Virus genome (UHGV): UHGV-0196030
Direction: 5' to 3' (one strand)
DNA: 11,550 nucleotides
DNA from: a virus
In this document: positions 685-11,550 of the stretch, in pieces
Layout: every line of letters starts with the position of its first letter
How positions within the stretch are numbered: the stretch's first letter is position 1
The notes under the pieces: model-generated
What the model saw: only the letters and a program-made list of their open reading frames with translations
What the model was told of the DNA's origin: nothing
Databases searched by the model: none
Translations under genes and position numbers: made by a program

Positions 685-717
685 TCAGGAAGAAGTGATG
701 AGTAACATTTTTCACAG
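685..717. repeat. Left junction: imperfect copy of the eutA 3' end (attL-like) just upstream of the eutB start
   Basis: TCAGGAAGAAGTGATGAGTAACATTTTTCACAG resembles the genuine eutA 3' end at 10688..10720 (TCAGGAAGGAAATGCGAGTGATTTCACCGTCAC): the first 8 nt are identical, then shared TG, GAGT and TTTCAC blocks with indels. Aligned by eye. Confidence 0.45.
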
Positions 718-957
718 CCTGCAAACAATTCTATTTCATCGTTAGCCCTTGTCCTGTAAGGTAATTGGCTTAACACGCCCGCTATTCATCCTGCCGAACG
801 CAACCGAACGCGCCGGATACATGAGCGGGGTTATCGAGTCGTTAGATCGAGGTATCCGGTTTTAAGCAAGACACCACTGACAGCAAAGGGCATAGAGGCC
901 GCCCAGCCGAAGGACAAGCCCTACAAACTCACCGATTCACTAACACCTGGCCTGTTC

Positions 958-2067
958 TTGCTGGTCCATCCCAATGGCAGCAAATACTGGCGATTCCGGT
1001 ACTGGATAGACAAGAAAGAGCGATTACAGGCCATCGGGGTATATCCGCTGATTAGCCTCAAGGAAGCCCGCAAACGCGCCACAGAGAGCCGTTTACTGAT
1101 AGCCCAGGGAATTGACCCAATGGAAGAAGCACGCAAGGAGAAAGCCATTGATGCGCTCAACATGGCGGCAAGTTTTAAGACCGTGGCGGAGGACTGGCTG
1201 ACTACTAGGGTGAGCGGTTGGTCAGAGTCCTACACGAAACAGGTCAGGACGGCGCTGAAAAATGACGTTTACCCCGTGCTGGGTAAGCGTTCAATCGTCG
1301 ATATAACCGCCCGTGATGTTCTGGCATTGCTTCAGAAGAAAGAGCGCACCGCGCCGGAGGCGGCCCATAAGTTACGCCAGCGTATCGGGGAGATCTTCAA
1401 ATTTGCCGTTATCACCGAACTGGTTAACCGGAATCCGGTTGCAGATCTGGATACGGCATTGAAAGCCAGACGCCCAGGCCATAACGCATGGATACAAATT
1501 AGTGAAATTCCGGCCTTCTACAAAGCCCTTGAGAGAGCCGGGAGCGTACAGATTCAGACGGCAATACGCTTGCTTATATTGACGGCATTAAGAACGGCAG
1601 AATTGCGAAAAATGCGGTGGGAATGGGTAGATCTGAGCACGGCAACAATCACCCTACCCGCTGAAGTCATGAAGGCCCGCCGACCGCACGTAGTCCCGTT
1701 ATCCCGGCAAGCGGTCGAGCTATTACAGGACCAGTTTACCCGCAGCGGGTACAGTGCTTTCGTCTTTCCGGGCCGATTCATGGATAAGCCATTGTCAGCA
1801 AGTGCCATCCTTAAAGCCCTGGAGCGTATCGGGTACAAGTCGATCGCCACTGGTCATGGTTGGCGGACCACCTTTTCAACGGCGCTTAATGAGTCTGGCA
1901 GATACTCACCAGACTGGATCGAAATCCAATTGGCCCACGTTCCGAAAGGTGTGCGCGGTGTATATAACCAGGCCGCCTACCTGAAGCAACGGCGGGTAAT
2001 GATGCAGGACTACGCGGACGCTATTGTTCTGATATTGGCTGGTGACGGTAATCCGCTGGAACCGTGA
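958..2067 (+). CDS. intZ: P4-family tyrosine integrase (site-specific recombinase); ORF shown from the first in-frame TTG, but N-terminal homology continues upstream to about 868
   Basis: N-terminal arm-binding-type sequence ...KDKPYKLTDSLTPGLFLLVHPNGSKYWRFRYWIDKKERLQAIGVYPLISLKEARKRATESRLL... and C-terminal catalytic region ...HGWRTTFSTALNESGRYSPDWIEIQLAHVPKGVRGVYNQAAYLKQRRVMMQDYADAI (H-x-x-R and catalytic Tyr as in P4 Int). Symbol given by locus analogy to K-12 CPZ-55, not by sequence identity check. Confidence 0.88.
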   Translation: MLVHPNGSKYWRFRYWIDKKERLQAIGVYPLISLKEARKRATESRLLIAQGIDPMEEARKEKAIDALNMAASFKTVAEDWLTTRVSGWSESYTKQVRTALKNDVYPVLGKRSIVDITARDVLALLQKKERTAPEAAHKLRQRIGEIFKFAVITELVNRNPVADLDTALKARRPGHNAWIQISEIPAFYKALERAGSVQIQTAIRLLILTALRTAELRKMRWEWVDLSTATITLPAEVMKARRPHVVPLSRQAVELLQDQFTRSGYSAFVFPGRFMDKPLSASAILKALERIGYKSIATGHGWRTTFSTALNESGRYSPDWIEIQLAHVPKGVRGVYNQAAYLKQRRVMMQDYADAIVLILAGDGNPLEP

Positions 2068-2074
2068 ACTATAA

Positions 2075-2100
2075 GGCCGGATTCGTCCGGCTTTTCTTTC
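2075..2100 (+). terminator. Rho-independent terminator after the integrase gene
   Basis: Stem GCCGGA (2076..2081) / TCCGGC (2086..2091), loop TTCG, followed by TTTTCTTTC, 8 nt after the TGA stop at 2065..2067. Confidence 0.6.
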
Positions 2101-2104
2101 GCTA

Positions 2105-2135
2105 ATTATTCCATTATTCCAATTAAGTGGAATAA
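2105..2135. promoter_or_regulatory. Operator-like site: tandem ATTATTCC x2 followed by a perfect 8-bp inverted repeat TTATTCCA-n6-TGGAATAA
   Basis: ATTATTCC at 2105..2112 and 2113..2120. Inverted-repeat arms at 2114..2121 and 2128..2135 with a 6-bp spacer, in an AT-rich intergenic region upstream of the 2277 CDS. Confidence 0.35.
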
Positions 2136-2214
2136 ATTATTCAATATCAAGAACTTAAATCCATGTTTGCAACGAAAGATCCAGAGTTCGAAAATAGGAT
2201 CAACACAAATAAAA

Positions 2215-2244
2215 GCCCCCGGCATGTTGCAGCATTCCGGGGGC
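2215..2244 (+). promoter_or_regulatory. Stable stem-loop in the putative 5' leader of the 2277 CDS
   Basis: 8-bp GC stem GCCCCCGG (2215..2222) / CCGGGGGC (2237..2244) with a 14-nt loop, about 30 nt upstream of the AAGGAG Shine-Dalgarno. Confidence 0.3.
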
Positions 2245-2276
2245 GGTATGAGAAACAAGCTAAAGGAGAATTTCTC

Positions 2277-2786
2277 ATGTCTGATATGCTAGCAGTAGAA
2301 CAAGAAACAAACAATGATGTTCGTCAATTTTTAAATAAAATTAACGAGTTACGGAATAAAGCACCCAAAAACGAAGAGACTAAACACGAAGAACACACGC
2401 CAGATCATTACGAGGCAAAACAGCAGGAGCAAGCCTGGCGTGGCAACCTGCGCTACCTGGATACATTAAACCGACTTGATGAGGTATTGCCTCGCAAACT
2501 GTACGAAAGGTGGGAGAAAGAACATACAGTCAACGACGAGGCCGTGCTACGCGCCCTTTGCTACTTTGCTGGTACTGGCAAAAACTCACAGTTGGGATGG
2601 TGCAGGGTTGGCAGGGGAACAATCGACAAGCGAGCCAGGCTATCAAAAAACACGGTTAAAAAATGCCTCGATCGTCTGGTCCACCACTTCAAACTGGTTG
2701 AGCGTACTGAAGGCTATATACCCGGATCGGCAGAAAGGGAATGCAACGAGTACCAGCTATTATTCAAGCCGTACAACATGAAATAA
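2277..2786 (+). CDS. Hypothetical protein, 169 aa, with a C-terminal winged-helix-like DNA-binding region (possible replication initiator or regulator)
   Basis: Strong SD AAGGAG (2263..2268) 8 nt before the ATG at 2277; the ORF-track start at 2163 has no SD. C-terminal segment GWCRVGRGTIDKRARLSKNTVKKCLDRLVHHFKLVERTEG looks like a winged helix. Followed by a terminator and an iteron cluster. Confidence 0.55.
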   Translation: MSDMLAVEQETNNDVRQFLNKINELRNKAPKNEETKHEEHTPDHYEAKQQEQAWRGNLRYLDTLNRLDEVLPRKLYERWEKEHTVNDEAVLRALCYFAGTGKNSQLGWCRVGRGTIDKRARLSKNTVKKCLDRLVHHFKLVERTEGYIPGSAERECNEYQLLFKPYNMK

Positions 2787-2794
2787 CGGAATCA

Positions 2795-2817
2795 GGCGGG
2801 CAATGTTCCCGCCTTTT
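2795..2817 (+). terminator. Rho-independent terminator after the 2277..2786 CDS
   Basis: Stem GGCGGG (2795..2800) / CCCGCC (2808..2813), loop CAATGTT, then TTTTCTTT. Confidence 0.65.
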
Positions 2818-2840
2818 CTTTGCCTTAATTCCATGAATTC

Positions 2841-2964
2841 AGGTGGGTCAAAAGTTGCCGTTAAGGTGGGTCAAAAGTTGCCGAGTAAGAATTCTACTAT
2901 TAAGAATTCTAGGCGACGGGAGTTTTTTAGCCTCCCGGTCGGTCATAGAGAGTCGCCTAGAGTT
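2841..2964. repeat. Iteron-like repeat cluster: two identical 20-bp direct repeats, two TAAGAATTCT repeats and a nested palindrome
   Basis: AGGTGGGTCAAAAGTTGCCG at 2841..2860 and 2864..2883, identical, 23 bp centre to centre. TAAGAATTCT at 2886..2895 and 2901..2910. Inverted repeat CTAGGCGAC (2909..2917) / GTCGCCTAG (2952..2960) enclosing hairpin CGGGAG-n9-CTCCCG. Confidence 0.6.
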
Positions 2965-3793
2965 AAAACAGAAGAATTGTTTCGCCGCCTGATAGGTCGG
3001 CTGGTTGCGAGCATTAACCATGCTGATTAGCGCAATCATTTCCAGCAAGCTGGAAACGCCCATTCACTCACGCACAACCTGAACAGCAGACCAACAGAAC
3101 ATCATGGCGATTCGTTCATGGGTAGCGCGGTATATCTCAAATGTGACGCCTCTTGTTGCTGGACCTTCGGAAAACACCATGGAGACGAAAGTATTCAATC
3201 TGGTCTGGCAGCAGGGAGAGCTTCGCTTCGCTCGTCTCCTGGGGCCAATGCTCAATGAAACGACGTAAGGCACGGAGCGCTCACCATAGGCAGACACATA
3301 AACATCTGAGAGCGCACCTTCTATCGCGCTACGCGCTCAATAAAAACCAACGACACCGCCATCCTGCCTGACCGATGTTTTTAACCAGCGTATACAGAGA
3401 AACAGACAATAGCATGAAATCAGCGTATATCCAGGTGCAGACGGCACTATCACACAACGCACAGCAGGCTTAAGTGACCACTCAGGAAACTTTATCCCCG
3501 CCACCGACTAACGCAAACCGTCCTGACCGCGCCAAATTCGAAAGGAATGCTACCTTAAACGCGATTAACACACATAAGCGCCACACTTACTTACCTGAAA
3601 ACTTCACAGCGTCACAGCGCGTTTTAGACACGTTAAAATCGATGCGATTTCATTAAATTTTTTTCACTCGCCTGAATGGTGGCAATCAGGACTGATTGCA
3701 ACATTGCCCCGCCTCGATACTGAGCGCATAATAAATACATACATTAAGCGGAAACGTCATTAACAGATTTGGAAAAACAATGGGTTACACATC

Positions 3794-4414
3794 ATGCGCA
3801 TATCAAAGCAGCAACGCCAAATCCTCGACTATCTGGCAGAAAACGAATCAATCACAGCACGCCAGGCGGCAGATCTCGTTTATGGCGGCAACGTTACCCG
3901 CGTACAGGTCGATGCAGCCCGCCGTTCACTGATGGCGCTGGTCAGCAATGGGCTAATCATGAAACAAGGCCGCGCTTTCGTAGCTGAAAGACATATCAAT
4001 CACGCTTATAGCCAGGACGTTGAAGAGTTGCGCCGTCAGATCCTTTGGGTATTCAGCAAAGAGGGGCAGGACTATCTCATTTCTGAGCGTCCAAATTACG
4101 CCGCCAAAGAGTTAACAGTAAGCGGATTGTCGTGCGCACTGGATTATCTTGTCGGTGAAGGTTGCGTTACTTACAAGCAGCTATGGCACGCCCTGAACAC
4201 GCTTGTAGAAGATGGTTTACTCATTGCCACGCGTGAGAATATCGAATACTGGATAATGCCGCGTTCAGGTCGCCGCAATCATGCGCGGTATATTTCAGGC
4301 AACAAATACAGAACGCCTGACTTTAATCCGACACAGGAAGATCGGGACCGTGCCGAAATGATGTGCAGGGAACGGGAGAAAAGATTCATGGACAAGTTGT
4401 TTTCGATGCGGTGA
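3794..4414 (+). CDS. Hypothetical protein, 206 aa, with an N-terminal winged-helix/HTH-like region (putative DNA-binding protein)
   Basis: Long ORF with protein-like composition. N-terminal ISKQQRQILDYLAENESITARQAADLVYGG...RSLMALVSNGLIMKQGR resembles MarR/winged-helix recognition helices. Weak SD. A strong terminator follows directly. Confidence 0.5.
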   Translation: MRISKQQRQILDYLAENESITARQAADLVYGGNVTRVQVDAARRSLMALVSNGLIMKQGRAFVAERHINHAYSQDVEELRRQILWVFSKEGQDYLISERPNYAAKELTVSGLSCALDYLVGEGCVTYKQLWHALNTLVEDGLLIATRENIEYWIMPRSGRRNHARYISGNKYRTPDFNPTQEDRDRAEMMCREREKRFMDKLFSMR

Positions 4415-4420
4415 ACACAA

Positions 4421-4443
4421 GCGGGCGCAATGCCCGTTTTTTA
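4421..4443 (+). terminator. Rho-independent terminator after the 3794..4414 CDS
   Basis: Stem CGGGC (4422..4426) / GCCCG (4432..4436), loop GCAAT, followed by T6 (4437..4442), 7 nt after the TGA stop. Confidence 0.7.
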
Positions 4444-4583
4444 TTGCCTTATTCCACGTCAGACGAATCAATCTAATCACACCTGAGCAAATGCATTGCC
4501 AAAAATTTAGGCTGTCAGAATGCGTTTTAGCGCGTTTTAAGGGCATCGAATTTTAATTAATTTTGATGCGGTGATTTGCGGGC

Positions 4584-4671
4584 AAAAAAAATCCAGCCGG
4601 AGAGGGCTGGAAATAGAGACATATCGTTGTAGTTATTAACAGATCACATTTTGAGGCTGAGTATTTACCTC
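4584..4671 (-). ncRNA. Putative small antisense RNA (~88 nt) with its own promoter and intrinsic terminator; contains a 14-nt complement of the HNH gene ribosome-binding region
   Basis: Minus-strand promoter-like hexamers: -35 TTGCAC (complement of 4701..4706), 17-bp spacer, -10 GATAAT (complement of 4678..4683). Minus-strand terminator: stem 4592..4598 / 4605..4611 followed by U8 (complement of A8 at 4584..4591). No ORF longer than about 19 codons inside. Contains the complement of 4643..4656, which is identical to 5090..5103 at the HNH Shine-Dalgarno. Confidence 0.3.
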
Positions 4672-4755
4672 ACTAATATTATCGCGCCGTTATGGTGATT
4701 GTGCAAATCATCTCTTCCAATCACAAAAACGTCATATTCGACAATGAAGCCGTGT

Positions 4756-4784
4756 TTGAACACGTAGGACAATGGGAATAAAAT
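4756..4784 (+). promoter_or_regulatory. Candidate sigma70 promoter for the alpA-HNH operon
   Basis: -35 TTGAAC (4756..4761), 17-bp spacer, -10 TAAAAT (4779..4784). Predicted start near 4791, about 90 nt upstream of alpA. Confidence 0.4.
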
Positions 4785-4823
4785 AATTACATAGGGTTTT
4801 TCTCTTGGCCTATTTTTTCATTC

Positions 4824-4868
4824 AGCGGCGGTTGTTTTTCTCCATATTTCCAGCCGCCGCTCCTTTTC
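4824..4868 (+). promoter_or_regulatory. Leader hairpin with a short U-tract upstream of alpA (possible attenuator)
   Basis: Stem AGCGGCGG (4824..4831) / CCGCCGCT (4854..4861), 22-nt loop, followed by CCTTTTCG, then the alpA SD GAGG at 4872..4875. Confidence 0.3.
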
Positions 4869-4883
4869 GAAGAGGTGATGAAA

Positions 4884-5075
4884 ATGAACGACTTTCCCGA
4901 ATTGATAAGCTGCGAACAAGTCGCTCGACTTTTTTGTGTAAGCAAGCGCACGATTCTCAGGTGGGTAGATAAAATCCCCGGCTTTCCAATCCCTGTAAGT
5001 CCTGAAGGAACCCCGCTCCGCTTTATTCGCAGCGAAATTCTCGAGTATTTCTACAGAGGGCACAACCATAAATAA
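4884..5075 (+). CDS. alpA: AlpA-family phage transcriptional regulator / excisionase-like HTH protein (about 63 aa)
   Basis: Small protein with the AlpA-like pattern ...LISCEQVARLFCVSKRTILRWVDKIPGFPIPVSPEGTPLRFIRSEILEYF. SD GAGG at 4872..4875, 8 nt before the ATG at 4884; in-frame GTG 4875 and ATG 4878 sit too close to the SD. Symbol is family-level. Confidence 0.7.
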   Translation: MNDFPELISCEQVARLFCVSKRTILRWVDKIPGFPIPVSPEGTPLRFIRSEILEYFYRGHNHK

Positions 5076-5111
5076 CGAAATAAAATCCCATCACATTTTG
5101 AGGTAAACATC

Positions 5112-5507
5112 ATGACCAATATCGAAAGATTAGAACGCTGTGCCGATATTATGCGGCGCAGATGGATTTATGACCCTGAAGCGGGTTTATTGTTTAGCCG
5201 TGAAACAAAAGACGTTATCAAAGGCAGCATGACCAATAAAGGGCATTTGGTTGTAACGGTACATGAAGGTAAATTCAAAGTGACACTCACCTATCAGAAA
5301 GCCTGCTATGTATACACATACGGCGCTTATGACGAGACATTATATGAAGTGCACCACGTTAATTTGAACAAACAGGATAACCGCATCAAGAATATTCGCC
5401 TGATGCCGAAAGAAAAGCACCGCCGGATACATAAAAACGTCCGCAAACTTATTCGGCTGGGCCACACACAATGGCTTCAACCGCAATTAATTGAACAATC
5501 ACTATAA
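5112..5507 (+). CDS. HNH endonuclease (HNH_3-type), 131 aa
   Basis: Motif YEVHHVNLNKQDNRIKNIRLMPKEKHRRIH matches the H-H-x-N...N-R...N-(I/L)-R signature of phage HNH_3 nucleases. SD GAGG at 5100..5103, 8 nt before the ATG. Confidence 0.6.
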   Translation: MTNIERLERCADIMRRRWIYDPEAGLLFSRETKDVIKGSMTNKGHLVVTVHEGKFKVTLTYQKACYVYTYGAYDETLYEVHHVNLNKQDNRIKNIRLMPKEKHRRIHKNVRKLIRLGHTQWLQPQLIEQSL

Positions 5508-5524
5508 ACACAGGAGTAAATACC

Positions 5525-5788
5525 ATGCATTCATTAGACAGTTATTTTCAGCGCACGACAGCCCCTAAATCAGCTGCCCAGGAACGCCGTGAGGAATTCC
5601 ATGAGAAAGTGATGCGTTCTGCTGATTATATTGCGGACAAGTTCGTGGAAACGGTTCGTCCACTTGTTGATGAAGTAGCTGATAAACTTCAGTCTGAAAT
5701 GCCGGAAGATATGGAAGGCACTGCAAAGCGGCGACTCATTTGCGAATTAAGTCGTCGTTTTGGCGTGTCAATAAGCGCTTTTAAATAA
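5525..5788 (+). CDS. Hypothetical protein, 87 aa
   Basis: Strong SD AGGAG (5512..5516) 8 nt before the ATG. Tightly packed between the HNH gene and the next ORF. Charged, protein-like composition. Confidence 0.5.
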   Translation: MHSLDSYFQRTTAPKSAAQERREEFHEKVMRSADYIADKFVETVRPLVDEVADKLQSEMPEDMEGTAKRRLICELSRRFGVSISAFK

Positions 5789-5810
5789 TCGAAAAAAGGG
5801 GGGAAAGATA

Positions 5811-6353
5811 ATGGACGCATTTGAGGTACTGGCAAATAAAGGCGCGGAACTGGTAGCACAGCGTGATAAAACCGCCAACGAAGGGGAACGCGCACTGCTA
5901 AATAGACAGATTAAAGCGATCCGTATGGCCCAGTTTAAATTAATCAGCAATGAAGTTATCGAAACAATTAAACCGCAGATCCCACAAATCGTTGCTGACG
6001 CTATTAAAGCCGCCGGACTGGAGAAACGCATTGCCGGGCTAAAAACGAACGCAGAGAAAATGGAGATGCACAAACAGAGCGGTGCTCCGAATCCCGATGA
6101 GTACTTCTCACCGGATGTTGAGTTTATGGCGCAGGTTGAGGAACGTCTGGGTAGCTGTCTCACCGAGGAACAGCGTCGCTATTTTGATGGAGTGGATAGT
6201 TCGGCAGGTATTGACCTGAACTCGTATTTCGGTCGTGAAATTGAGCATTTTGATGCCGCCCCGTCTATGCCGGAGCCAGAAACAGAAATGGCCGCCGATC
6301 CTGAAGCTGAGCAACGGAAACGCGTATTCAATGCGATAGGGATTCGGTACTGA
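5811..6353 (+). CDS. Hypothetical protein, 180 aa, acidic C-terminus
   Basis: G-rich SD (AAGGGGGG, 5796..5803) before the ATG at 5811, which lies 22 nt after the previous stop. Codon usage looks coding. No motif recognised. Confidence 0.5.
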   Translation: MDAFEVLANKGAELVAQRDKTANEGERALLNRQIKAIRMAQFKLISNEVIETIKPQIPQIVADAIKAAGLEKRIAGLKTNAEKMEMHKQSGAPNPDEYFSPDVEFMAQVEERLGSCLTEEQRRYFDGVDSSAGIDLNSYFGREIEHFDAAPSMPEPETEMAADPEAEQRKRVFNAIGIRY

Positions 6354-6404
6354 TCGGATAAAAGAAAGCCGGGAATTACCCCGGCTGACTTAACAATGTG
6401 ACCA

Positions 6405-6779
6405 ATGAACAAATCGGACAAGACAAACAGGATAAGCAGTCTCGAAACAATGTTCGGGAACTATATTAGCACAAGTCCGGAGAAAATCATCATGTTGGCA
6501 CTACGCATCATGCAGGGCATCGCTAAGACCCTCGCAGAACATGTCTTAGACCTGAAACATTCGCCACTGAGCAAACAGGCCATGAAGCGCCAAACGCTTC
6601 GTCTGTGGGCTGAATATTCGCTTGGAACTATCAATAAGCTCATCAATATGAAGTCGAAAGATAATGGCAGTGTCCATGAGTGTAACAGCGAAGAAAAGGA
6701 ATTTGTGAAACGCCTGAAGTTAATCCGCGCCGATATTCACTCACAACTGGCCTCTTGTGGTTGCGATATTGATGACTAA
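6405..6779 (+). CDS. Hypothetical protein (124 aa from ATG 6405; a better-supported start at ATG 6492 would give 95 aa)
   Basis: ATG 6405 has no SD. The in-frame ATG at 6492 is preceded by GGAGA (6479..6483) at 8-nt spacing. The C-terminal region is the same either way. Confidence 0.45.
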   Translation: MNKSDKTNRISSLETMFGNYISTSPEKIIMLALRIMQGIAKTLAEHVLDLKHSPLSKQAMKRQTLRLWAEYSLGTINKLINMKSKDNGSVHECNSEEKEFVKRLKLIRADIHSQLASCGCDIDD

Positions 6780-6808
6780 CAGCGTGCTAACGGGGGGTTA
6801 ATCGCCCC

Positions 6809-6858
6809 TTAGCGATAGCTTAGCTAACTGTTAGTGAGCCTTAGCGACATCTTAGCGA
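6809..6858. repeat. Five helically phased iterons TTAG(C/T)(G/T)A immediately upstream of the terS-like gene (candidate packaging or protein-binding array)
   Basis: TTAGCGA 6809, TTAGCTA 6820, TTAGTGA 6831, TTAGCGA 6841, TTAGCGA 6852: spacing 11, 11, 10, 11 bp. Preceded by a G-rich hairpin-like GGGGGG-TTAAT-CGCCCC at 6792..6808. Confidence 0.55.
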
Positions 6859-6878
6859 CAGTTTAACCGGGGGTAAAT

Positions 6879-7283
6879 GTGGAGACTGAAGATAAAGAAA
6901 TCAATAACTTGCCTGTAAATGGCAACAGGTTAGCGAGAAAAAGGGCCAAATATACCATCGCGCTGGCGGAAGAAATTTGTTTGTTGGTAGCGGAAGGCCA
7001 TAGCCTACGTGAGATCGCGAAGATGCCAGACATGCCATCGTTACGCACTTTAATGCGGTGGCAATATGAACATCCAGATTTCAGAGAGCACATCGGTATT
7101 TTTAAGTGGATTCACGCCCAGGACGCAGCAGAGCAAGCTGTTGAAGCTATCAGAGATGTAGATCTGGAAGCGGAAGACGCGCCACTGAAATTAAAACAGG
7201 CTGAGGCATTAGCCCGCACTTTGTTAGGTCGTGCCAAATTGCTTGAGAGCAAAAACAATCCATTCAACGGGGGTGACAAATGA
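6879..7283 (+). CDS. Phage terminase small subunit (TerS)-like protein, 134 aa, GTG start
   Basis: N-terminal HTH region KYTIALAEEICLLVAEGHSLREIAKMPDMPSLRTLMRWQYEHPDFREHI matches the pattern I recall for TerS-family proteins (Y-T-x-E-L-A-x-x-I-C...G-x-S-L-R-x-I...M-P-S-x-x-T-x-x-R-W). G-rich SD at 6868..6872. Confidence 0.55.
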   Translation: METEDKEINNLPVNGNRLARKRAKYTIALAEEICLLVAEGHSLREIAKMPDMPSLRTLMRWQYEHPDFREHIGIFKWIHAQDAAEQAVEAIRDVDLEAEDAPLKLKQAEALARTLLGRAKLLESKNNPFNGGDK

Positions 7284-7789
7284 GCTTTATGGGTAAACAC
7301 AAGACTGGTGGTAAAGACGACGCACAGGGCTTGTTTAAGGCCGGGAAAAAGGCATCTTTAACGCCGGAAGAAAAAGATAGACAACTACAGCTTAAGCCAT
7401 TCAGCCAGTGGACAAAGCAGGATATCGCGATGTGGCGAGCCGTTAATATTGAACGCTGCCAGGAAGACGTAGACGACGGACTGATGGAAGATTTCGAACT
7501 GGACGATCTGATTAATTGTTGGGCCTTCGAGATCGTCGATGATGCGCTTATCCGTACCCGTACCGCGCCGCCGTGTGAGGAAATGATGCTGGGACTGATG
7601 AAGCCGACTACGGATCTGGTTGTTGGTTACTGTCAGATTGATGGCCTTGATAGCCTTGCCGCCGCCGATACAACCGACTCAATGGAACAAGCCGCACGCC
7701 AGCAACGGAAGATTGAACTGCAACGACGCCTACACCATGAGCGCAACGTACCAGGGCAAGAACTGGAAACCATCCCGCGCCGCCAGTAA
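7280..7789 (+). CDS. Hypothetical protein, 169 aa, translationally coupled to the terS-like gene
   Basis: ATG at 7280 overlaps the terS-like TGA stop (ATGA overlap at 7280..7283). GGGGG (7269..7273) serves as SD. Acidic, Cys-containing protein with no recognised motif. Confidence 0.5.
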   Translation: MSFMGKHKTGGKDDAQGLFKAGKKASLTPEEKDRQLQLKPFSQWTKQDIAMWRAVNIERCQEDVDDGLMEDFELDDLINCWAFEIVDDALIRTRTAPPCEEMMLGLMKPTTDLVVGYCQIDGLDSLAAADTTDSMEQAARQQRKIELQRRLHHERNVPGQELETIPRRQ

Positions 7790-7815
7790 TTTTCGGACAA
7801 GCGGGCGCGCAGCCA

Positions 7816-7841
7816 ACGCCAGGGGCATCCAGACTGGCGGA
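7816..7841 (+). repeat. Hairpin element ACGCCAGGGG-CAGACTGGCGGA, copy 1 (copy 2 at 9976..9999)
   Basis: Stem CGCCAG / CTGGCG conserved in both copies; the loops differ by a 2-nt indel. Each copy lies 10-27 nt after a stop codon (7789 and 9966). Confidence 0.45.
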
Positions 7842-8120
7842 ATATATCAATAGTGCGCATTAGATACATTATGTGAAAAACGACATGAGTATATATCAGT
7901 ACTGATTTTACTGGAAAAACTTGATTTTCAGTATCAATCCCAAAGAAGTATGGCTAATGCAGCTTTATAAGCAATTGATTCTATTAAGCGATGTTTTTTG
8001 TGATTGGTTGAAGCAAACCGGAATACGAAGACAGTGAAGCGGCAATAAACTGTTTCAATGTGAAATTATCAGAGTAAACAACAATTTTGGAGGTGTCCGC
8101 ACAACGCGGATAGCAATATC

Positions 8121-9966
8121 ATGAGTGGAAATCTTGGGACCATTTACTATGAGGTGGACGCCCGCACGGGTAAGCTACTGATGGCACAAGAAGAAGCGAA
8201 TCAGGCTTTTGATGCCATTGAGCGTGGCGCAAAACGTGCTGATAACGGCGTCAAAAAACTGAATACGCAGATGACCAAAACGTCTGCCGCAGTAAAATCA
8301 AATTTCTCATTTGCAATCAAAAACGCATCCTACCAGATAGCAGACCTTGCTACACAACTTCAGATGGGCGGTAATGCCATCCAGGTCTTTGCCGTTCAAG
8401 GGGCGCAGCTTGTCGCTGCATTTGGTACTGGCGGTGCGGTCATGGGTGCGGTCATGGCTATTGGCGGGGCAATTGCCAACAGCCTTACGGATAACATGGA
8501 TGACGCCACGGATAGAAAAATACATTGATGCGCTACTCCGCTACAGCAACGAGGTGCTAACAGCAGAAGAGCGTCAAACGGCGTTAAACGAGGCACTGAA
8601 TGCTGGGGCGTCTGCGGCAGCAATTGCCACTGGCGAAATGCTGATTAAACAGGAGCAGATCAAGCAAGAGAAGCTAAAAGGCAATGAGAACGCTGCGCTT
8701 GATATGGCGCTGGCTGAGGGCAAGTTAACGAAGGCGGATCACGATAGGCTTGTCCAGATGCGAGAAGAAACAAAGGAATTGGAGGAGAACAAACGCAAGG
8801 AAGAAGAGAACGCCAGGGAGAAAGAACGAGCAGCCAAACAGGCAGAAAGCGCGGCGAAACAGGCGGCGAAACAGGCGCAACGCGAACTTGAACAGCTTCA
8901 GAAACGCGGGCAAGGTGTAGCTGACAAGTACAACGTAGAGGGCGCAGCACAGCGTAAACTAAAAGAAGACCAGGAAGCGCTAAATGCAGCAATGGAAGCT
9001 GGCAAAATCAGCACAGAACAATATAACGCAGCGTGGGCCGGACTCCTGAGAACGGAGGCGCAACGCAAACAGCAAGCCGGATGGGATAATCTTGTCAGCC
9101 GGGAAGATAAGCTAAAAGGCCGTGTTGACCCAATCCAGCAGGTGATGAACGAATGGAATGTTCGCAAGCAAATGATGCTCGATTTAGGCGTCACTGAGGC
9201 AACCATGCGGCAAGCAGAGATCGACCACAAAGAACGAATTCTTAACCTTCAGTGGCAGCAATGGCAGGCGCAAAGCGATACTAACGCGCTTGTAGGTAAC
9301 ATGATTGATGGCCTCGCTTCCGGTGCTGGTAGCGCATTTACCGGACTGCTTAACGGATCTCAATCGTTCCAGGAATCACTTGCTAACATCGGAACGACCA
9401 TTATCAACCAGGTTGTTGGAAGCCTTGCGCAGATGGGGGCGGAATACGTTAAACAGCTTGTTATGGGTGAGGTTGCGCAGAAATCAGCCTCCGCATCAGC
9501 TACTGCAACGGCAGCGGCAACAGGCGCATCAATCGCATCATCAATGGCCCCAGCAGCAGCGGCGACAGCAACCGCGACAATGGGTACGGCCCCGATGGTG
9601 GCGATGTCTGCGATGTCGGCATTAATGACTGGCATTACAAGCCTATTTGGCGGACGTCGCTACAACGGCGGCGCGGTTAATGGCGGCAATATGTATCGAG
9701 TCGGTGAAAACAAAGTACCTGAACTATTCCAGACCAATAACGGACGGCAGTACATGATTCCGGGTGAGAATGGTCGCATCATTCCTGGTCGTGATATTGG
9801 TGGCGGTAACGTTAGCATAAACGCGCCTATAACCGTTTACCCACAAAACGGTTGGACCGAACAGGATAGCAAGGCATTGCAGCAGACGATTGAGAATACA
9901 GCGATGCGGTTGATGCAGAGAGAATCAACCAGGCCGGGCGGAATGCTCCAGGGTCGCCGCCGTTAA
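8121..9966 (+). pseudogene. Lambda gpH-like tail tape-measure gene, split by a frameshift near 8516..8528 into 8121..8528 and a second frame running to 9966
   Basis: N-terminal part (...YQIADLATQLQMGGNAIQVFAVQGAQLVAAFGTGGAVMGAVMAIGGAIANSL) resembles the lambda H region FTDVATQLAGGQSPWLILLQQGGQV. Downstream frame has coiled-coil KEEENAREKERAAKQAESAAKQAAKQAQRELEQLQKRG and a Gly/Ala/Thr-rich C-terminus ending GGMLQGRRR (lambda H ends GGLFSGGGR). The two frames are offset by +1, with an A5 run at 8516..8520 just before the frame-0 stop. No other tail genes are present. Confidence 0.6.
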
Positions 9967-10136
9967 CCAAATCCCACGCCAGGGGAACAGACTGGCGGAC
10001 CTTCAAAGACGGTCGCACACCGTGTTTAACATAATTTATTGTTTTTTGCTTGCTCTTATTATTGCAGCCGTTAGAGTTGGCGTGGCAGTTTTTCACCTGT
10101 TTCGCGTGTTGCTGTGTTTTTGGGGAAGAAAAACAA

Positions 10137-10232
10137 ATGAGAAGGCTTATATACCTGGTATTTATGCTATTTGCTATCGGGCAAGCCATAATTTTTATCA
10201 CAATGCTGATCTGTCTGATGCTCTTTGGTTAA
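10137..10232 (+). CDS. Small hydrophobic peptide, 31 aa (MRRLIYLVFMLFAIGQAIIFITMLICLMLFG): candidate small membrane protein or type I toxin-like peptide
   Basis: SD GGGGAAG (10122..10128) 8 nt before the ATG at 10137. Single predicted transmembrane helix after an N-terminal RR. The stop is followed within 10 nt by an intrinsic terminator. Confidence 0.4.
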   Translation: MRRLIYLVFMLFAIGQAIIFITMLICLMLFG

Positions 10233-10240
10233 CTCCACCA

Positions 10241-10260
10241 GGACCCGCGACGGGTTTTTA
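10241..10260 (+). terminator. Rho-independent terminator after the small hydrophobic ORF
   Basis: Stem ACCCG (10243..10247) / CGGGT (10251..10255), loop CGA, followed by TTTTT. Confidence 0.55.
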
Positions 10261-10431
10261 TACCATCATTATTAAATCTATTAATAATCATCAAACCATA
10301 ATTAGCACAACTTATAATCGAGCAAAAATCACACAACCTTGATAAGTTGAGCTAATGGCTATATGTTTTTCTGATGAAATCCTAATGGCGAAAACTTGCG
10401 ACGATACCGAAAAAACCGCGAAAATTGAAGT

Positions 10432-10541
10432 GTTCTTTCTTTTTTTGTTTTTTATTTTTTTATTTTCTCTTTTTCTTCTCTTTCCGGTTCTCTTCTTTTT
10501 CTGGTTTTGGTTTTTTCCTTTTTTATTTTTATTCTTTCTTC
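10432..10541. repeat. Polypyrimidine (T/C-rich) low-complexity tract of about 110 bp; polypurine on the minus strand
   Basis: GTTCTTTCTTTTTTTGTTTTTTATTTTTTTATTTTCTCTTTTTCTTCTCTTTCCGGTTCTCTTCTTTTTCTGGTTTTGGTTTTTTCCTTTTTTATTTTTATTCTTTCTTC; strongly pyrimidine-biased, with only scattered purines. Confidence 0.7.
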
Positions 10542-10687
10542 AGGGTTGTGCTAAAACACACCAAAACATTTTCGCCACAAAAGCGTTAATTTCATCCTGC
10601 CAGACCATTCACTTTCACCGGATACACAGCCGGATATATTCCCACTAACACCCCACCACCCAGCGCCACGCCTGATAACTACCGTAT

Positions 10688-10720
10688 TCAGGAAGGAAAT
10701 GCGAGTGATTTCACCGTCAC
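10688..10720. repeat. Right junction: the genuine eutA 3' end, partner of the imperfect repeat at 685..717 (attR-like)
   Basis: TCAGGAAGGAAATGCGAGTGATTTCACCGTCAC includes the eutA stop codon (TCA on +, TGA on minus). See the left-junction repeat. Confidence 0.45.
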
Positions 10721-11550
10721 CGGCACAACCGATCCGCCAAAAAGAGGCGTACCAATGTCGATATAGTCCCCCGCGCGGACAATCACTTCGTCAATGACTG
10801 CCAACGGGAGTTGTTGTAGCTGTGGGCGCAACAACATGCCCAGAGCTTTACCAAAGTCCTGCCCGGCCACCACCAGCAGGGGATGCGGATTCGGAAAACG
10901 CGCGACGAAATCGACCAGCGCGTTGATGACCGTCAGTACCGCGGCGTAACGCACAGGCAGCGAGGCGGGAAGCGCCAGCACGTACGCGTCAGTTTTGGGA
11001 TCAAGATCCAGCTGAAGCAGCGCCTGTTGCCAGGCACTCACCAGATCCGTTTCATCAATCGGGATCGCCACCGGCAAATTGCGCAGCGGCAGTTGTACGC
11101 CCTCCAGCCAGATTGTGCTGCCAGAGAGCGAAAGGGTATGTGCACCCGCGCCAATCACCGTGGCGCGTACGGTTTGCGCCGGAAACTGCACATTCATCTC
11201 ACGCAGGCGCGGATGGTCATGCAGCGCCGTTGCCAGAAGTGGGCCAATATCGGCAAAACAGAACGGGTCGGCGGGCTGGTGGCGATAACATTCGCCCACG
11301 CCTCCAGAAAGCGTAATGATTTCGGGCGTAACACCTGCGGGCAGCAAACCGGTTTGCATCAATGCCTGCGCGAGCGGCGAAAGCGTTCCGTCAATCACTT
11401 CGACAATCAGCGCCGCCATCCGCCGGGTAACCTGCACCAGCTGCGCGCCGGTCAGCGAACGGGCGTCAGTGCCTGCACCGAAGCACTCATCCACAATCAT
11501 CTGCCCCGGTTTATGAGCGTAAACCACGCGCCCGTGGCTGTCGGTTTCCA
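10688..11550 (-). CDS. eutA: Ethanolamine utilisation protein EutA (ethanolamine ammonia-lyase reactivase), C-terminal ~287 codons; gene continues past the window end
   Basis: Minus-strand frame open from the window end to the stop at 10688..10690, ending ...GTPLFGGSVVPVTVKSLAFPS. Lies directly upstream of eutB in operon orientation, as in the eut operon order eutA then eutB. Confidence 0.85.
   Translation of the reverse strand, partial: ETDSHGRVVYAHKPGQMIVDECFGAGTDARSLTGAQLVQVTRRMAALIVEVIDGTLSPLAQALMQTGLLPAGVTPEIITLSGGVGECYRHQPADPFCFADIGPLLATALHDHPRLREMNVQFPAQTVRATVIGAGAHTLSLSGSTIWLEGVQLPLRNLPVAIPIDETDLVSAWQQALLQLDLDPKTDAYVLALPASLPVRYAAVLTVINALVDFVARFPNPHPLLVVAGQDFGKALGMLLRPQLQQLPLAVIDEVIVRAGDYIDIGTPLFGGSVVPVTVKSLAFPS

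Follow-up and report, generated by a model that had tools for sequence, protein, structure and literature searches.

The window analysed here, the whole 11,550-nucleotide stretch filed as virus genome UHGV-0196030, proved to be a segment of an Escherichia coli chromosome in which an insertion of about 10 kb lies between eutB on the left and eutA on the right. The inserted element is best read as a slightly decayed copy of the island family represented in strain K-12 by the cryptic prophage CPZ-55. At its centre, a rightward operon encodes a homologue of the phage small terminase subunit (TerS) and, overlapping it, a 169-aa protein of the YffP family (p169), and a disrupted tail tape-measure protein (TMP) gene follows downstream. 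A preliminary description of positions 5112-7789, made from the letters and open reading frames (ORFs) alone, had taken this part for the packaging-hijack module of a phage satellite. The features on which the argument turns are listed below; comparison loci carry L numbers.

685..692: attL, left boundary, 8-bp core TCAGGAAG, adjoining the start of eutB (empty-site comparison; PMC6379469)
817..2067, plus strand: IntZ, P4-type tyrosine integrase (Pfam Arm-DNA-bind_3, Phage_int_M and Phage_integrase; 90% to IntZ by BLASTP)
4875..5075, plus strand: AlpA-like HTH_17 regulator/excisionase (Pfam HTH_17; PHROG 66/1553 excisionase-regulator)
5112..5507, plus strand: HNH_3 endonuclease, 131 aa (Pfam HNH_3)
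5525..5788, plus strand: 87-aa conserved operon protein, p87 (homologues at 36-40% in L013 and L021)
5811..6353, plus strand: 180-aa protein, p180 (N-terminal coiled coil, acidic tail with repeated YF(D/G) motifs)
6492..6779, plus strand: YffM-like protein, 95 aa (47% to K-12 YffM; mechanical ORF start at 6405)
6879..7283, plus strand: TerS homologue of the Sf6 gp1 type, 134 aa (Pfam PF20901, PHROG 1482)
7280..7789, plus strand: YffP-family protein p169, 169 aa (ATGA overlap with the TerS-like gene)
7817..7839, plus strand: inverted repeat CGCCAG-N11-CTGGCG, just 3' of the yffP-like stop codon
8121..9966, plus strand: tail tape-measure gene, disrupted (PHROG 1538/1107; alignment with MB19)
9977..9997, plus strand: second inverted repeat CGCCAG-N9-CTGGCG, just 3' of the TMP stop codon
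10688..10695: attR, right boundary, 8-bp core TCAGGAAG, overlapping the eutA stop codon (empty-site comparison; PMC6379469)

In a megablast search of 5,426 complete E. coli genomes, strain MB19 matched the whole window at 99.9% identity, and its RefSeq annotation lists an integrase, an HNH endonuclease, a 'terminase small subunit-like protein', a 'phage tail tape measure protein' and hypothetical proteins. Comparison with an empty eutB-eutA site (L016) set the island junctions at the 8-bp direct repeat TCAGGAAG, giving an island that extends from 693 to 10687 (~10.0 kb). The K-12 element CPZ-55 (intZ, yffL-yffS) occupies the same insertion site with an identical 8-bp duplication and has a prevalence of about 8% (PMC6379469); in our own count, the eut site was empty in 4,964 of the 5,426 genomes. 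Between the window and K-12, protein identity was 90% for integrase and IntZ, 94% for p207 and YffL, 47% for the C-terminal part of p124 and YffM, 53% for the TerS-like protein and YffO, and 27% (E 3e-9) for p169 and YffP, and we assign the TerS-like protein and p169 as diverged forms of YffO and YffP. The K-12 copy is smaller (6.8 kb versus ~10 kb); alpA, HNH, p87, p180 and TMP are missing from it, and yffN and yffQ-S stand in their place.

All six plus-strand ORFs that the preliminary description had placed in 5112-7789 were recovered at their coordinates, and RefSeq annotates MB19 likewise. These six genes lie on one strand, 17-99 nt apart except where two of them overlap by 4 nt. They follow the AlpA-like gene, which heads the conserved rightward operon in all related islands and plasmids, so that the layout is one of a P4-type integrase at one end and then an alpA-led operon of a single direction. 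The four proteins singled out as unknown (at 5525, 5811, 6405 and 7280) are all present as ORFs, but the start of the one placed at 6405 is most likely 6492, because both the RefSeq call and the homologue alignments begin there.

Several independent comparisons bear on the TerS-like protein. It scored 50.8 bits against PF20901 Sf6_terminase (cut-off 27; E 2e-13; profile positions 1-89) and 6e-15 against PHROG 1482 terminase small subunit, and its residues 22-91 gave a direct phmmer match to the Sf6 gp1 crystal-structure sequences 3HEF/4DYC (E 3e-8). With tblastn, it was aligned to annotated phage TerS proteins of Ralstonia GP4 (residues 6-134) and BPP-1 (residues 23-134). The AlphaFold2 (AF2) model comprised a three-helix DNA-binding domain followed by two long helices (66-92 and 101-126), the place of the helix pair from which TerS of the Sf6 gp1 type forms its oligomeric ring, and its sole matches in the PDB were six Sf6 gp1 chains (probability 1.00, 110 columns, template-modelling score ~0.46). 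Residues 127-134 were disordered in this monomer model, and the GP4 and BPP-1 alignments reach residue 134. We predict that the protein is a genuine full-length member of the TerS family of the Sf6 gp1 type; the sequence and fold matches uphold the earlier reading of it as TerS-like and speak against an unrelated helix-turn-helix (HTH) regulator. The gene directly 3' of it encodes the 169-aa YffP-family protein and not TerL, and no Terminase_* match was found in the window. A scan of the GTDB species representatives with a TerS-like profile returned matches in E. coli only.

The TerS-like stop codon and the p169 start codon overlap as ATGA, with a ribosome-binding site (GGGGGTGA) upstream, in agreement with the translational coupling proposed before. 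Ten loci carrying a TerS-like or a YffP-family gene were examined, and in each the two genes lay side by side; by annotated coordinates the two ORFs overlapped in nine of them (the window, K-12, L007, L009, L011, L013, L017, L018 and L021); in the tenth, L019 (CP058022), the yffP-like ORF crosses the record origin and adjacency alone is readable. A 29-sequence profile run with HMMER over 1.84 billion representative proteins retrieved only 18 clusters of the YffP family, all of 60-197 aa, and in the eight clusters looked up every source-named member was from E. coli. The family is strongly diversified, sharing P40, W44, D76, L90 and R94 and having variable C termini. The AF2 model of p169 was of moderate confidence, with a predicted local distance difference test (pLDDT) score of 74 (core ~90), and its fold matched nothing in PDB or BFVD, nor did its sequence match any entry in Pfam, PHROG, NCBIfam or PADLOC. 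Word-seeded homologue searches returned E. coli proteins only, and a scan of metagenomes with p169 yielded chromosomal or short contigs only. A truncated TerL or another phage protein was rejected as the origin of p169, since tblastn found no match in 50,697 phage records or the mEp loci; the uniformly small size of the 18 clusters and the lack of a PDB or BFVD fold match also dismissed a TerL fragment. A single non-Escherichia occurrence was seen: pHK02-026 of Klebsiella pneumoniae (L028, 86570-93044), a conjugative IncFIA/IncR resistance plasmid, carries a complete K-12-type CPZ-55 segment (int, yffL-yffS) between an IS66-family element and an mphA-mrx-mphR cluster. Its 'yffP' was rejected as an independent lineage, being part of a K-12-type segment between insertion sequence (IS) elements.

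The operon recurs, in the order alpA-(HNH)-small ORFs-YffM-like-TerS-like-YffP-like, on three backbones: eut islands, an island at ansP/yncG and circular plasmids. Other eut islands read int, a variable left arm, alpA, small ORFs, TerS-like, overlapping YffP-like, TMP-like and a variable right arm. In a related eut island, that of E. coli 13P460A (L004), the conserved operon is separated from the TMP-like gene by genes for an AIPR-family protein of the abortive-infection type and for unknown products (8766-10472), and the island family is predicted on this basis also to carry defence-type cargo. The ansP/yncG island spans ~4.8 kb and has seven genes (int, p212, alpA, HNH_3, p75, TerS-like and YffP-like), whose products are 32% (integrase), 47% (AlpA), 35% (TerS) and 79% (YffP-like) identical to those of the window. 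This mini-island was seen in several E. coli genomes (L005-L008, L012) and is among the smallest integrase-bounded elements with a TerS homologue. The values for YffP-like and TerS indicate a differing evolutionary tempo of the two proteins. Because YffP is coupled to TerS and yet differs from it in tempo, our data suggest that YffP contacts both the TerS-like protein and some external partner, and such a tiny, diversified, E. coli-named family would suit an arms-race protein.

The extrachromosomal members include circular, non-mobilizable E. coli plasmids of 8.9-9.7 kb (CP057337, CP057168 (L018) and CP058022 (L019)), which carry alpA, (HNH), p180-like, YffM-like, TerS-like and YffP-like genes together with a serine resolvase and a YffS-like gene. 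Among these, L019 encodes a 538-aa DUF5906/VapE-like helicase; in plasmids L017 and L018 (9-9.7 kb), TerS-like/YffP are kept and no Rep could be recognised. A further member is an 11,404-bp circular episome (L021; GCA_024449585.1), represented by a Logan contig whose ends overlap by 30 nt and by an NCBI contig that is an exact rotation of it; the episome has a DUF5906 helicase and neither integrase nor eut flanks. Its products are 75% (AlpA), 73% (HNH), 64% (YffM-like), 89% (TerS) and 74% (YffP-like) identical to those of the window, and its TMP is 95% identical at the N terminus and ~64% in the middle. The helicase, of the P4-alpha/PICI-Rep kind (PICI, phage-inducible chromosomal island), was found in the two episomal members L019 and L021 only. 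A single subset of genes that turns up again on integrase, resolvase and helicase backbones, its proteins diverging by 26-90%, is not the residue expected of random prophage decay.

Besides TerS, the island carries one virion-structural gene, that of the tail tape measure. In the window, the gene is split by a 524-bp out-of-frame deletion relative to MB19 (junction at ~8513-8515 in the window-MB19 alignment), leaving ORFs 8121-8528 (135 aa) and 8347-9966 (539 aa). It is intact in MB19 (790 aa), and in many eut islands the TMP-like gene is a single intact coding sequence (727-790 aa). The preliminary description had stated that the element encodes no TerL, portal or major capsid protein. No family match to TerL, portal or capsid was found among the window proteins in Pfam or PHROG, and in this respect the statement stands; its accompanying argument that no ORF is large enough was wrong, given the 539-aa ORF. 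The best phage matches of the MB19 TMP were temperate E. coli siphophages of the mEp021 group (mEp010, 044, 554, 021, 515, 013 and MagusPhagus), with ~50% identity over the N-terminal 82 and the C-terminal ~350 residues and a differing middle. The mEp021 gene for TerS (161 aa, full PF20901 match) precedes those for TerL (Terminase_6C), portal and head proteins, and the 781-aa TMP stands at the end of the first structural block. Residues 25-68 of the TerS-like protein, its DNA-binding domain, are 50% identical to mEp021 TerS. The nearest phage relatives of TerS and of TMP both lie in the mEp021 group, and no further phage gene was found in the island; the two phage-derived genes indicate a single phage group as donor or helper. 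As a side observation, RefSeq mostly names a portal-region gene of mEp021-like prophages 'anti-CBASS protein Acb1 family protein' (in one genome 'DUF1073 domain-containing protein'); in the mEp021 phage record, the gene that RefSeq calls Acb1-family is the portal, which may be a matter of naming or of a fused domain.

The TMP cassette is bracketed by the two copies of the inverted repeat CGCCAG-N9-11-CTGGCG, against an expectation of 0 copies in the window. The repeat is conserved 3' of yffP-like genes in islands and plasmids, including plasmids without TMP, and is a candidate protein-binding (perhaps pac-like) site or operon end. In the eut islands and plasmids, an intrinsic terminator found no support, there being no U-tract and no RNA hairpin of unusual stability (z-scores -0.38 and +1.25); the ansP island has a canonical terminator at this position. 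A match to the motif within the mEp554 TMP gene had unrelated flanks and was treated as chance, and a motif scan of IMG/VR was negative.

The protein encoded at 5112-5507 scored 33.3 bits against Pfam HNH_3 (PF13392; curated cut-off 24.8; E 3.8e-8). Its motif residues H82, N90 and N94 are intact and invariant across five island and plasmid homologues, which confirms that an HNH_3-type nuclease is present. The role first proposed for it, that of partner of the terminase in cos-type packaging, was not supported. The HNH gene follows alpA directly in every member that has it, and lies 1.4 kb upstream of the TerS-like gene rather than adjoining it. It is absent from L009, L013 and L017, where TerS/YffP are kept and unrelated ORFs stand in its place, and from many islands whose neighbouring genes are 96% identical. 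The packaging-associated type (HK97 gp74 / phi12), which cos cleavage requires, is encoded beside terS/terL or portal in a cos module, an arrangement that was not seen here, and packaging of the Sf6-type TerS / Terminase_6C kind is not of the HNH-dependent cos type. The nearest phage relatives were annotated free-standing homing endonucleases of phiCbK-like and FelixO1-like lytic phages, and PADLOC-DB gave weak HNH-domain matches only (ZorE/HEase models, E 1e-4 or weaker). The HNH gene appears to behave as an optional accessory cassette and not as a core packaging component; its product could be a homing-type selfish gene product, a nickase, or an anti-helper nuclease like NixI of the phage-inducible chromosomal island-like element (PLE).

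Apart from HNH, nine window proteins gave no match in PADLOC, and no model there matched the TerS-like protein, YffP or TMP. For p87, no family match was found in Pfam, PHROG, PADLOC or further profile scans. The p180 protein is a fusion of ORFs that are separate in its relatives L009, L017 and L018 (an 80-aa coiled coil and a 139-aa protein) and had no above-threshold family match in Pfam or PHROG; the two N-terminal coiled coils are paralogous, and the C-terminal part has a conserved C-terminal NA(I/L)GI motif. Of the small operon proteins, the YffM-like one is conserved most widely, with 45-64% identity to plasmid and episome homologues. No tRNA was found in the window, and Rfam at gathering thresholds gave nothing in the window and three plasmids. 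Further genes belong to the flanks and the left arm.

eutB, minus strand: start at 673, left flank
2163..2786, plus strand: YffL-like protein, island-specific left arm (94% identical to K-12 YffL)
3794..4414, plus strand: 206-aa left-arm protein (weak N-terminal winged-helix signal)
10688-11527: eutA, right flank (Pfam EutA, 4.6e-83)

The YffL-like protein had no significant family match in the profile library scans. The 206-aa gene is followed by a terminator-like hairpin (4419-4439) and has homologues of equal length, 79-100% identical, in L003, L004 and L009; RefSeq annotates at this position a longer pseudogene with an internal stop.

Some further observations concern DNA outside the recognised genes. 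Positions 2838-2960, just 3' of the yffL-like terminator, contain a 23-bp tandem repeat in perfect register (TT[CA]AGGTGGGTCAAAAGTTGCCG x2), followed by repeated AAGAATTCTA and a palindrome, TAGGCGAC...GTCGCCTA, that encloses a GGGAG/CTCCC hairpin. Other eut islands and K-12 have conserved this region, which looks like a candidate iteron or protein-binding region, possibly an origin. Two apparently non-coding stretches, 3282-3569 and 4451-4875, are ~80% and ~70% identical to non-coding DNA of CP057168 (L018 2231-2515 and 3003-3418), the proteins neighbouring them being just 26-47% identical to their CP057168 counterparts; the second stretch, located upstream of alpA, also shows conservation in the 11.4-kb episome. 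Both are candidate regulatory or origin sequences. The right island end before attR (10350-10650) is an AT-/pyrimidine-rich low-complexity tract with a GC content of ~36% and T/CT-rich repeats at 10425-10549. The ORFs 10022-10342 and 10355-10648 at this end may not all be genes, and the former is annotated in MB19 and 73-80% conserved in other islands.

This particular copy shows signs of decay. The start codon of K-12 intZ, TTG, is TTA in the window and MB19 (window 856-864 versus L002 3857-3865). RefSeq starts the MB19 integrase at a non-canonical ATA at 817, and the first canonical start, a TTG at 958, would cost part of the arm-binding domain. A deletion that differs from the one in the window removes p169 and the 5' part of TMP in strains ET881 and SW071610. 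No window protein matched a primase, helicase or Rep in Pfam, PHROG or further profile scans. Because the integrase start is lost, TMP is frameshifted and a recognisable replicase is absent, this copy is probably no longer autonomous or mobile, even if the family is active.

Since two unrelated integrase backbones and plasmids without other phage genes all carry this operon, we tentatively favour, at somewhat less than an even chance, the explanation that the CPZ-55 family consists of small (~5-11 kb) E. coli phage satellites or hitchhikers, existing as islands and as plasmids, which use their TerS homologue for packaging hijack. When a helper phage is active, the AlpA-type regulator would turn on the single rightward operon, from alpA to the yffP-like gene. 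The oligomeric TerS homologue together with YffP would then mark element DNA for the helper TerL and/or block the helper TerS, and the element DNA would be packaged in helper capsids. The eut-type and some episomal members would co-express a TMP homologue that fits the tails of mEp021-like siphophages, and the HNH_3 nuclease would be an accessory cassette outside core packaging. The preliminary preference for a satellite over a decayed phage is sustained by the recurrence of the module on unrelated backbones, but not by its HNH/cos rationale. Also in its favour are the PICI-like layout, the full-length TerS homology, the constant pairing of TerS-like with a YffP-family gene, the DUF5906/VapE-like helicases of two episomal members, the shared mEp021 affinity of TerS and TMP, the intact TMP-like genes of many eut islands and the small, diversified YffP family; SaPI TerS with Ppi and PLE Gpi/Gps would be functional precedents. 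In a bolder and doubtful form of this explanation, CPZ-55 elements would be unrecognised satellites that switch between island and plasmid, direct their own packaging by means of TerS and, as adaptor/inhibitor, the orphan YffP, and have their own TMP built into the tails of mEp021-like helpers; a satellite TMP in a helper tail could, for example, alter the DNA-entry route or allow escape from helper superinfection exclusion.

A number of results weigh against packaging hijack. The C-terminal half of the TerS-like protein, the part expected to bind TerL, has no similarity to mEp021 TerS, and direct recruitment of mEp021 TerL is therefore not implied. IMG/VR contigs searched with p169 and the TerS-like protein gave no match, and no attP junction was found in IMG/VR viral contigs or metagenome contigs. 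Prophages like mEp021 occur in 35 of the 5,426 genomes and in none that carries this TerS type, against an overlap of ~0.1 genome expected, a test without statistical power. The eut islands L003 and L004 keep alpA-HNH-small ORFs-TMP and have no TerS/YffP, and HNH is absent from others. The lack of a replicase match and the decay of the present copy count on the same side, as does the literature, which treats CPZ-55 as a grounded prophage (PMC6379469).

Three other explanations have to be set against these data. In one, which we regard as unlikely, the genes are anti-phage cargo: the TerS homologue/YffP and TMP would act as dominant-negative proteins or decoys that poison the packaging and tails of mEp021-like phages and protect the host, and the element would move otherwise, by its integrase, plasmid co-transfer or generalized transduction. 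A protein that shares the mEp021 TerS DNA-binding domain (50%) and not its C-terminal half has the look of a pac-site competitor; YffP is hypervariable within one species, the right arm of the related island 13P460A carries an AIPR/Abi defence-type protein, and packaging-targeting defences exist, among them TerI in Listeria and Gpi in PLE. Yet no PADLOC model matches TerS-like, YffP or TMP, and the module lies in a satellite-typical alpA-controlled operon, outside the variable cargo arm, and forms the main conserved content of 9-kb plasmids. Interference and hijack can also coexist; the Staphylococcus aureus pathogenicity islands (SaPIs) do both.

It is distinctly unlikely, in our view, that the TerS-fold protein and YffP serve element housekeeping unrelated to particles, as replication initiator, partition or copy-control proteins acting at the inverted repeat. 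Such a role would fit plasmids L017 and L018, which keep TerS-like/YffP without a recognisable Rep, the conserved inverted repeat just 3' of yffP-like genes in islands and plasmids, and the negative virome scans (IMG/VR, attP). It sits poorly, however, with full-length homology to bona fide phage TerS, with the repeated association with a tape-measure gene from the same phage group, and with the retention of TerS-like/YffP both by episomes that already have a DUF5906 helicase and by a 4.8-kb integrated island. That CPZ-55 is a functionless grounded prophage, in which TerS and TMP accidentally survived internal deletions of an mEp021-like structural operon, we hold to be improbable, even though it is annotated and discussed as a cryptic prophage (PMC6379469). 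In mEp021, TerS and TMP bracket the head-tail operon, so that a single large deletion could join them, and decay is ongoing, as seen in the TMP deletion, the loss of the integrase start and the deletion of p169 in ET881 and SW071610. Against this, the same subset recurs at 26-90% protein divergence on three backbones, including plasmids without other phage genes; TerS/YffP coupling is kept wherever coordinates are readable; YffP lacks phage homologues and is no fragment of TerL, its 18 clusters all being of 60-197 aa; and many islands have an intact TMP.

E. coli K-12 has nine cryptic prophages, CPZ-55 among them, and function is known for no K-12 yff gene. What is already known is the element as CPZ-55 and TerS-carrying satellites as a kind. 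A literature search on CPZ-55, intZ, yffO/yffP and eutA/eutB with satellite or terminase found no functional description, and the alpA...TerS/YffP operon common to islands and small plasmids, the orphan YffP partner and the recurrent tape-measure gene were not found in the literature that could be searched. If these elements are TerS-carrying hitchhikers, a textbook K-12 element, whose insertion interrupts the eut operon of ~8% of E. coli genomes (PMC6379469), would be reclassified, and YffO/YffP would gain a testable function. A very small (~5-11 kb) E. coli satellite type would be added outside the current definitions (pri-rep, capsid genes, P4 markers), phage-mediated transfer would be linked to non-mobilizable small plasmids, and a satellite-encoded tape-measure protein would be a new mode of helper virion manipulation. 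If they instead encode a packaging or tail decoy, a new anti-phage mechanism would result.

Among known systems, the layout of the island matches that described for Gram-negative PICIs and for PICMIs, the phage-inducible chromosomal minimalist islands of Vibrionaceae (PMC6092414 and PMC10803314). With Gram-negative PICIs (PMC6092414), the window island shares the integrase at one end, alpA, one gene direction, a specific att site and a size of ~10-15 kb; it differs in that a pri-rep module with an origin was not found and in that it has a virion structural gene, the tape measure, where such PICIs have no structural or lysis genes. SaPI-type PICIs and Gram-negative PICIs with a TerS of their own, such as PmCI172 (PMC6092414), are likewise small integrase-bounded islands with their own TerS and without TerL, portal or capsid. 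In the window island, as in SaPI-type PICIs, the TerS homologue stands at the end of a late operon beside a small partner protein. SaPIs of S. aureus reportedly encode Ppi alongside their own TerS; YffP, by comparison, resembles nothing known in sequence or fold. The window copy further differs from SaPI-type PICIs in having no pri-rep, in having a TMP and in having resolvase plasmids as relatives.

Capsid-forming PICIs (cf-PICIs) also combine HNH and TerS in a small E. coli island, but they have genes for TerL, portal, protease, capsid and connectors as well, whereas no such family was matched here, and the present HNH is of the homing type and stands beside alpA. In the PLE of Vibrio cholerae, the small proteins Gpi, GpsA and GpsB block and re-specify the helper packaging motor. 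A functional analogy to TerS-like/YffP is possible without homology, PLE using small specifiers and pac mimicry. PLE has a lytic myovirus as its helper. The P4 hallmarks sid, psu, delta, alpha primase-helicase and cos had no Pfam or PHROG match in the window, and the P4 plasmid state, with its P4-alpha/D5-type helicase, has a counterpart in the episomal relatives L019 and L021. Finally, PICMIs (PMC10803314), which unlike the window island have no terminase gene and sit beside fis, resemble it in their very small size, their int-alpA core, their lack of capsid-remodelling genes and the concatemer packaging proposed for them.

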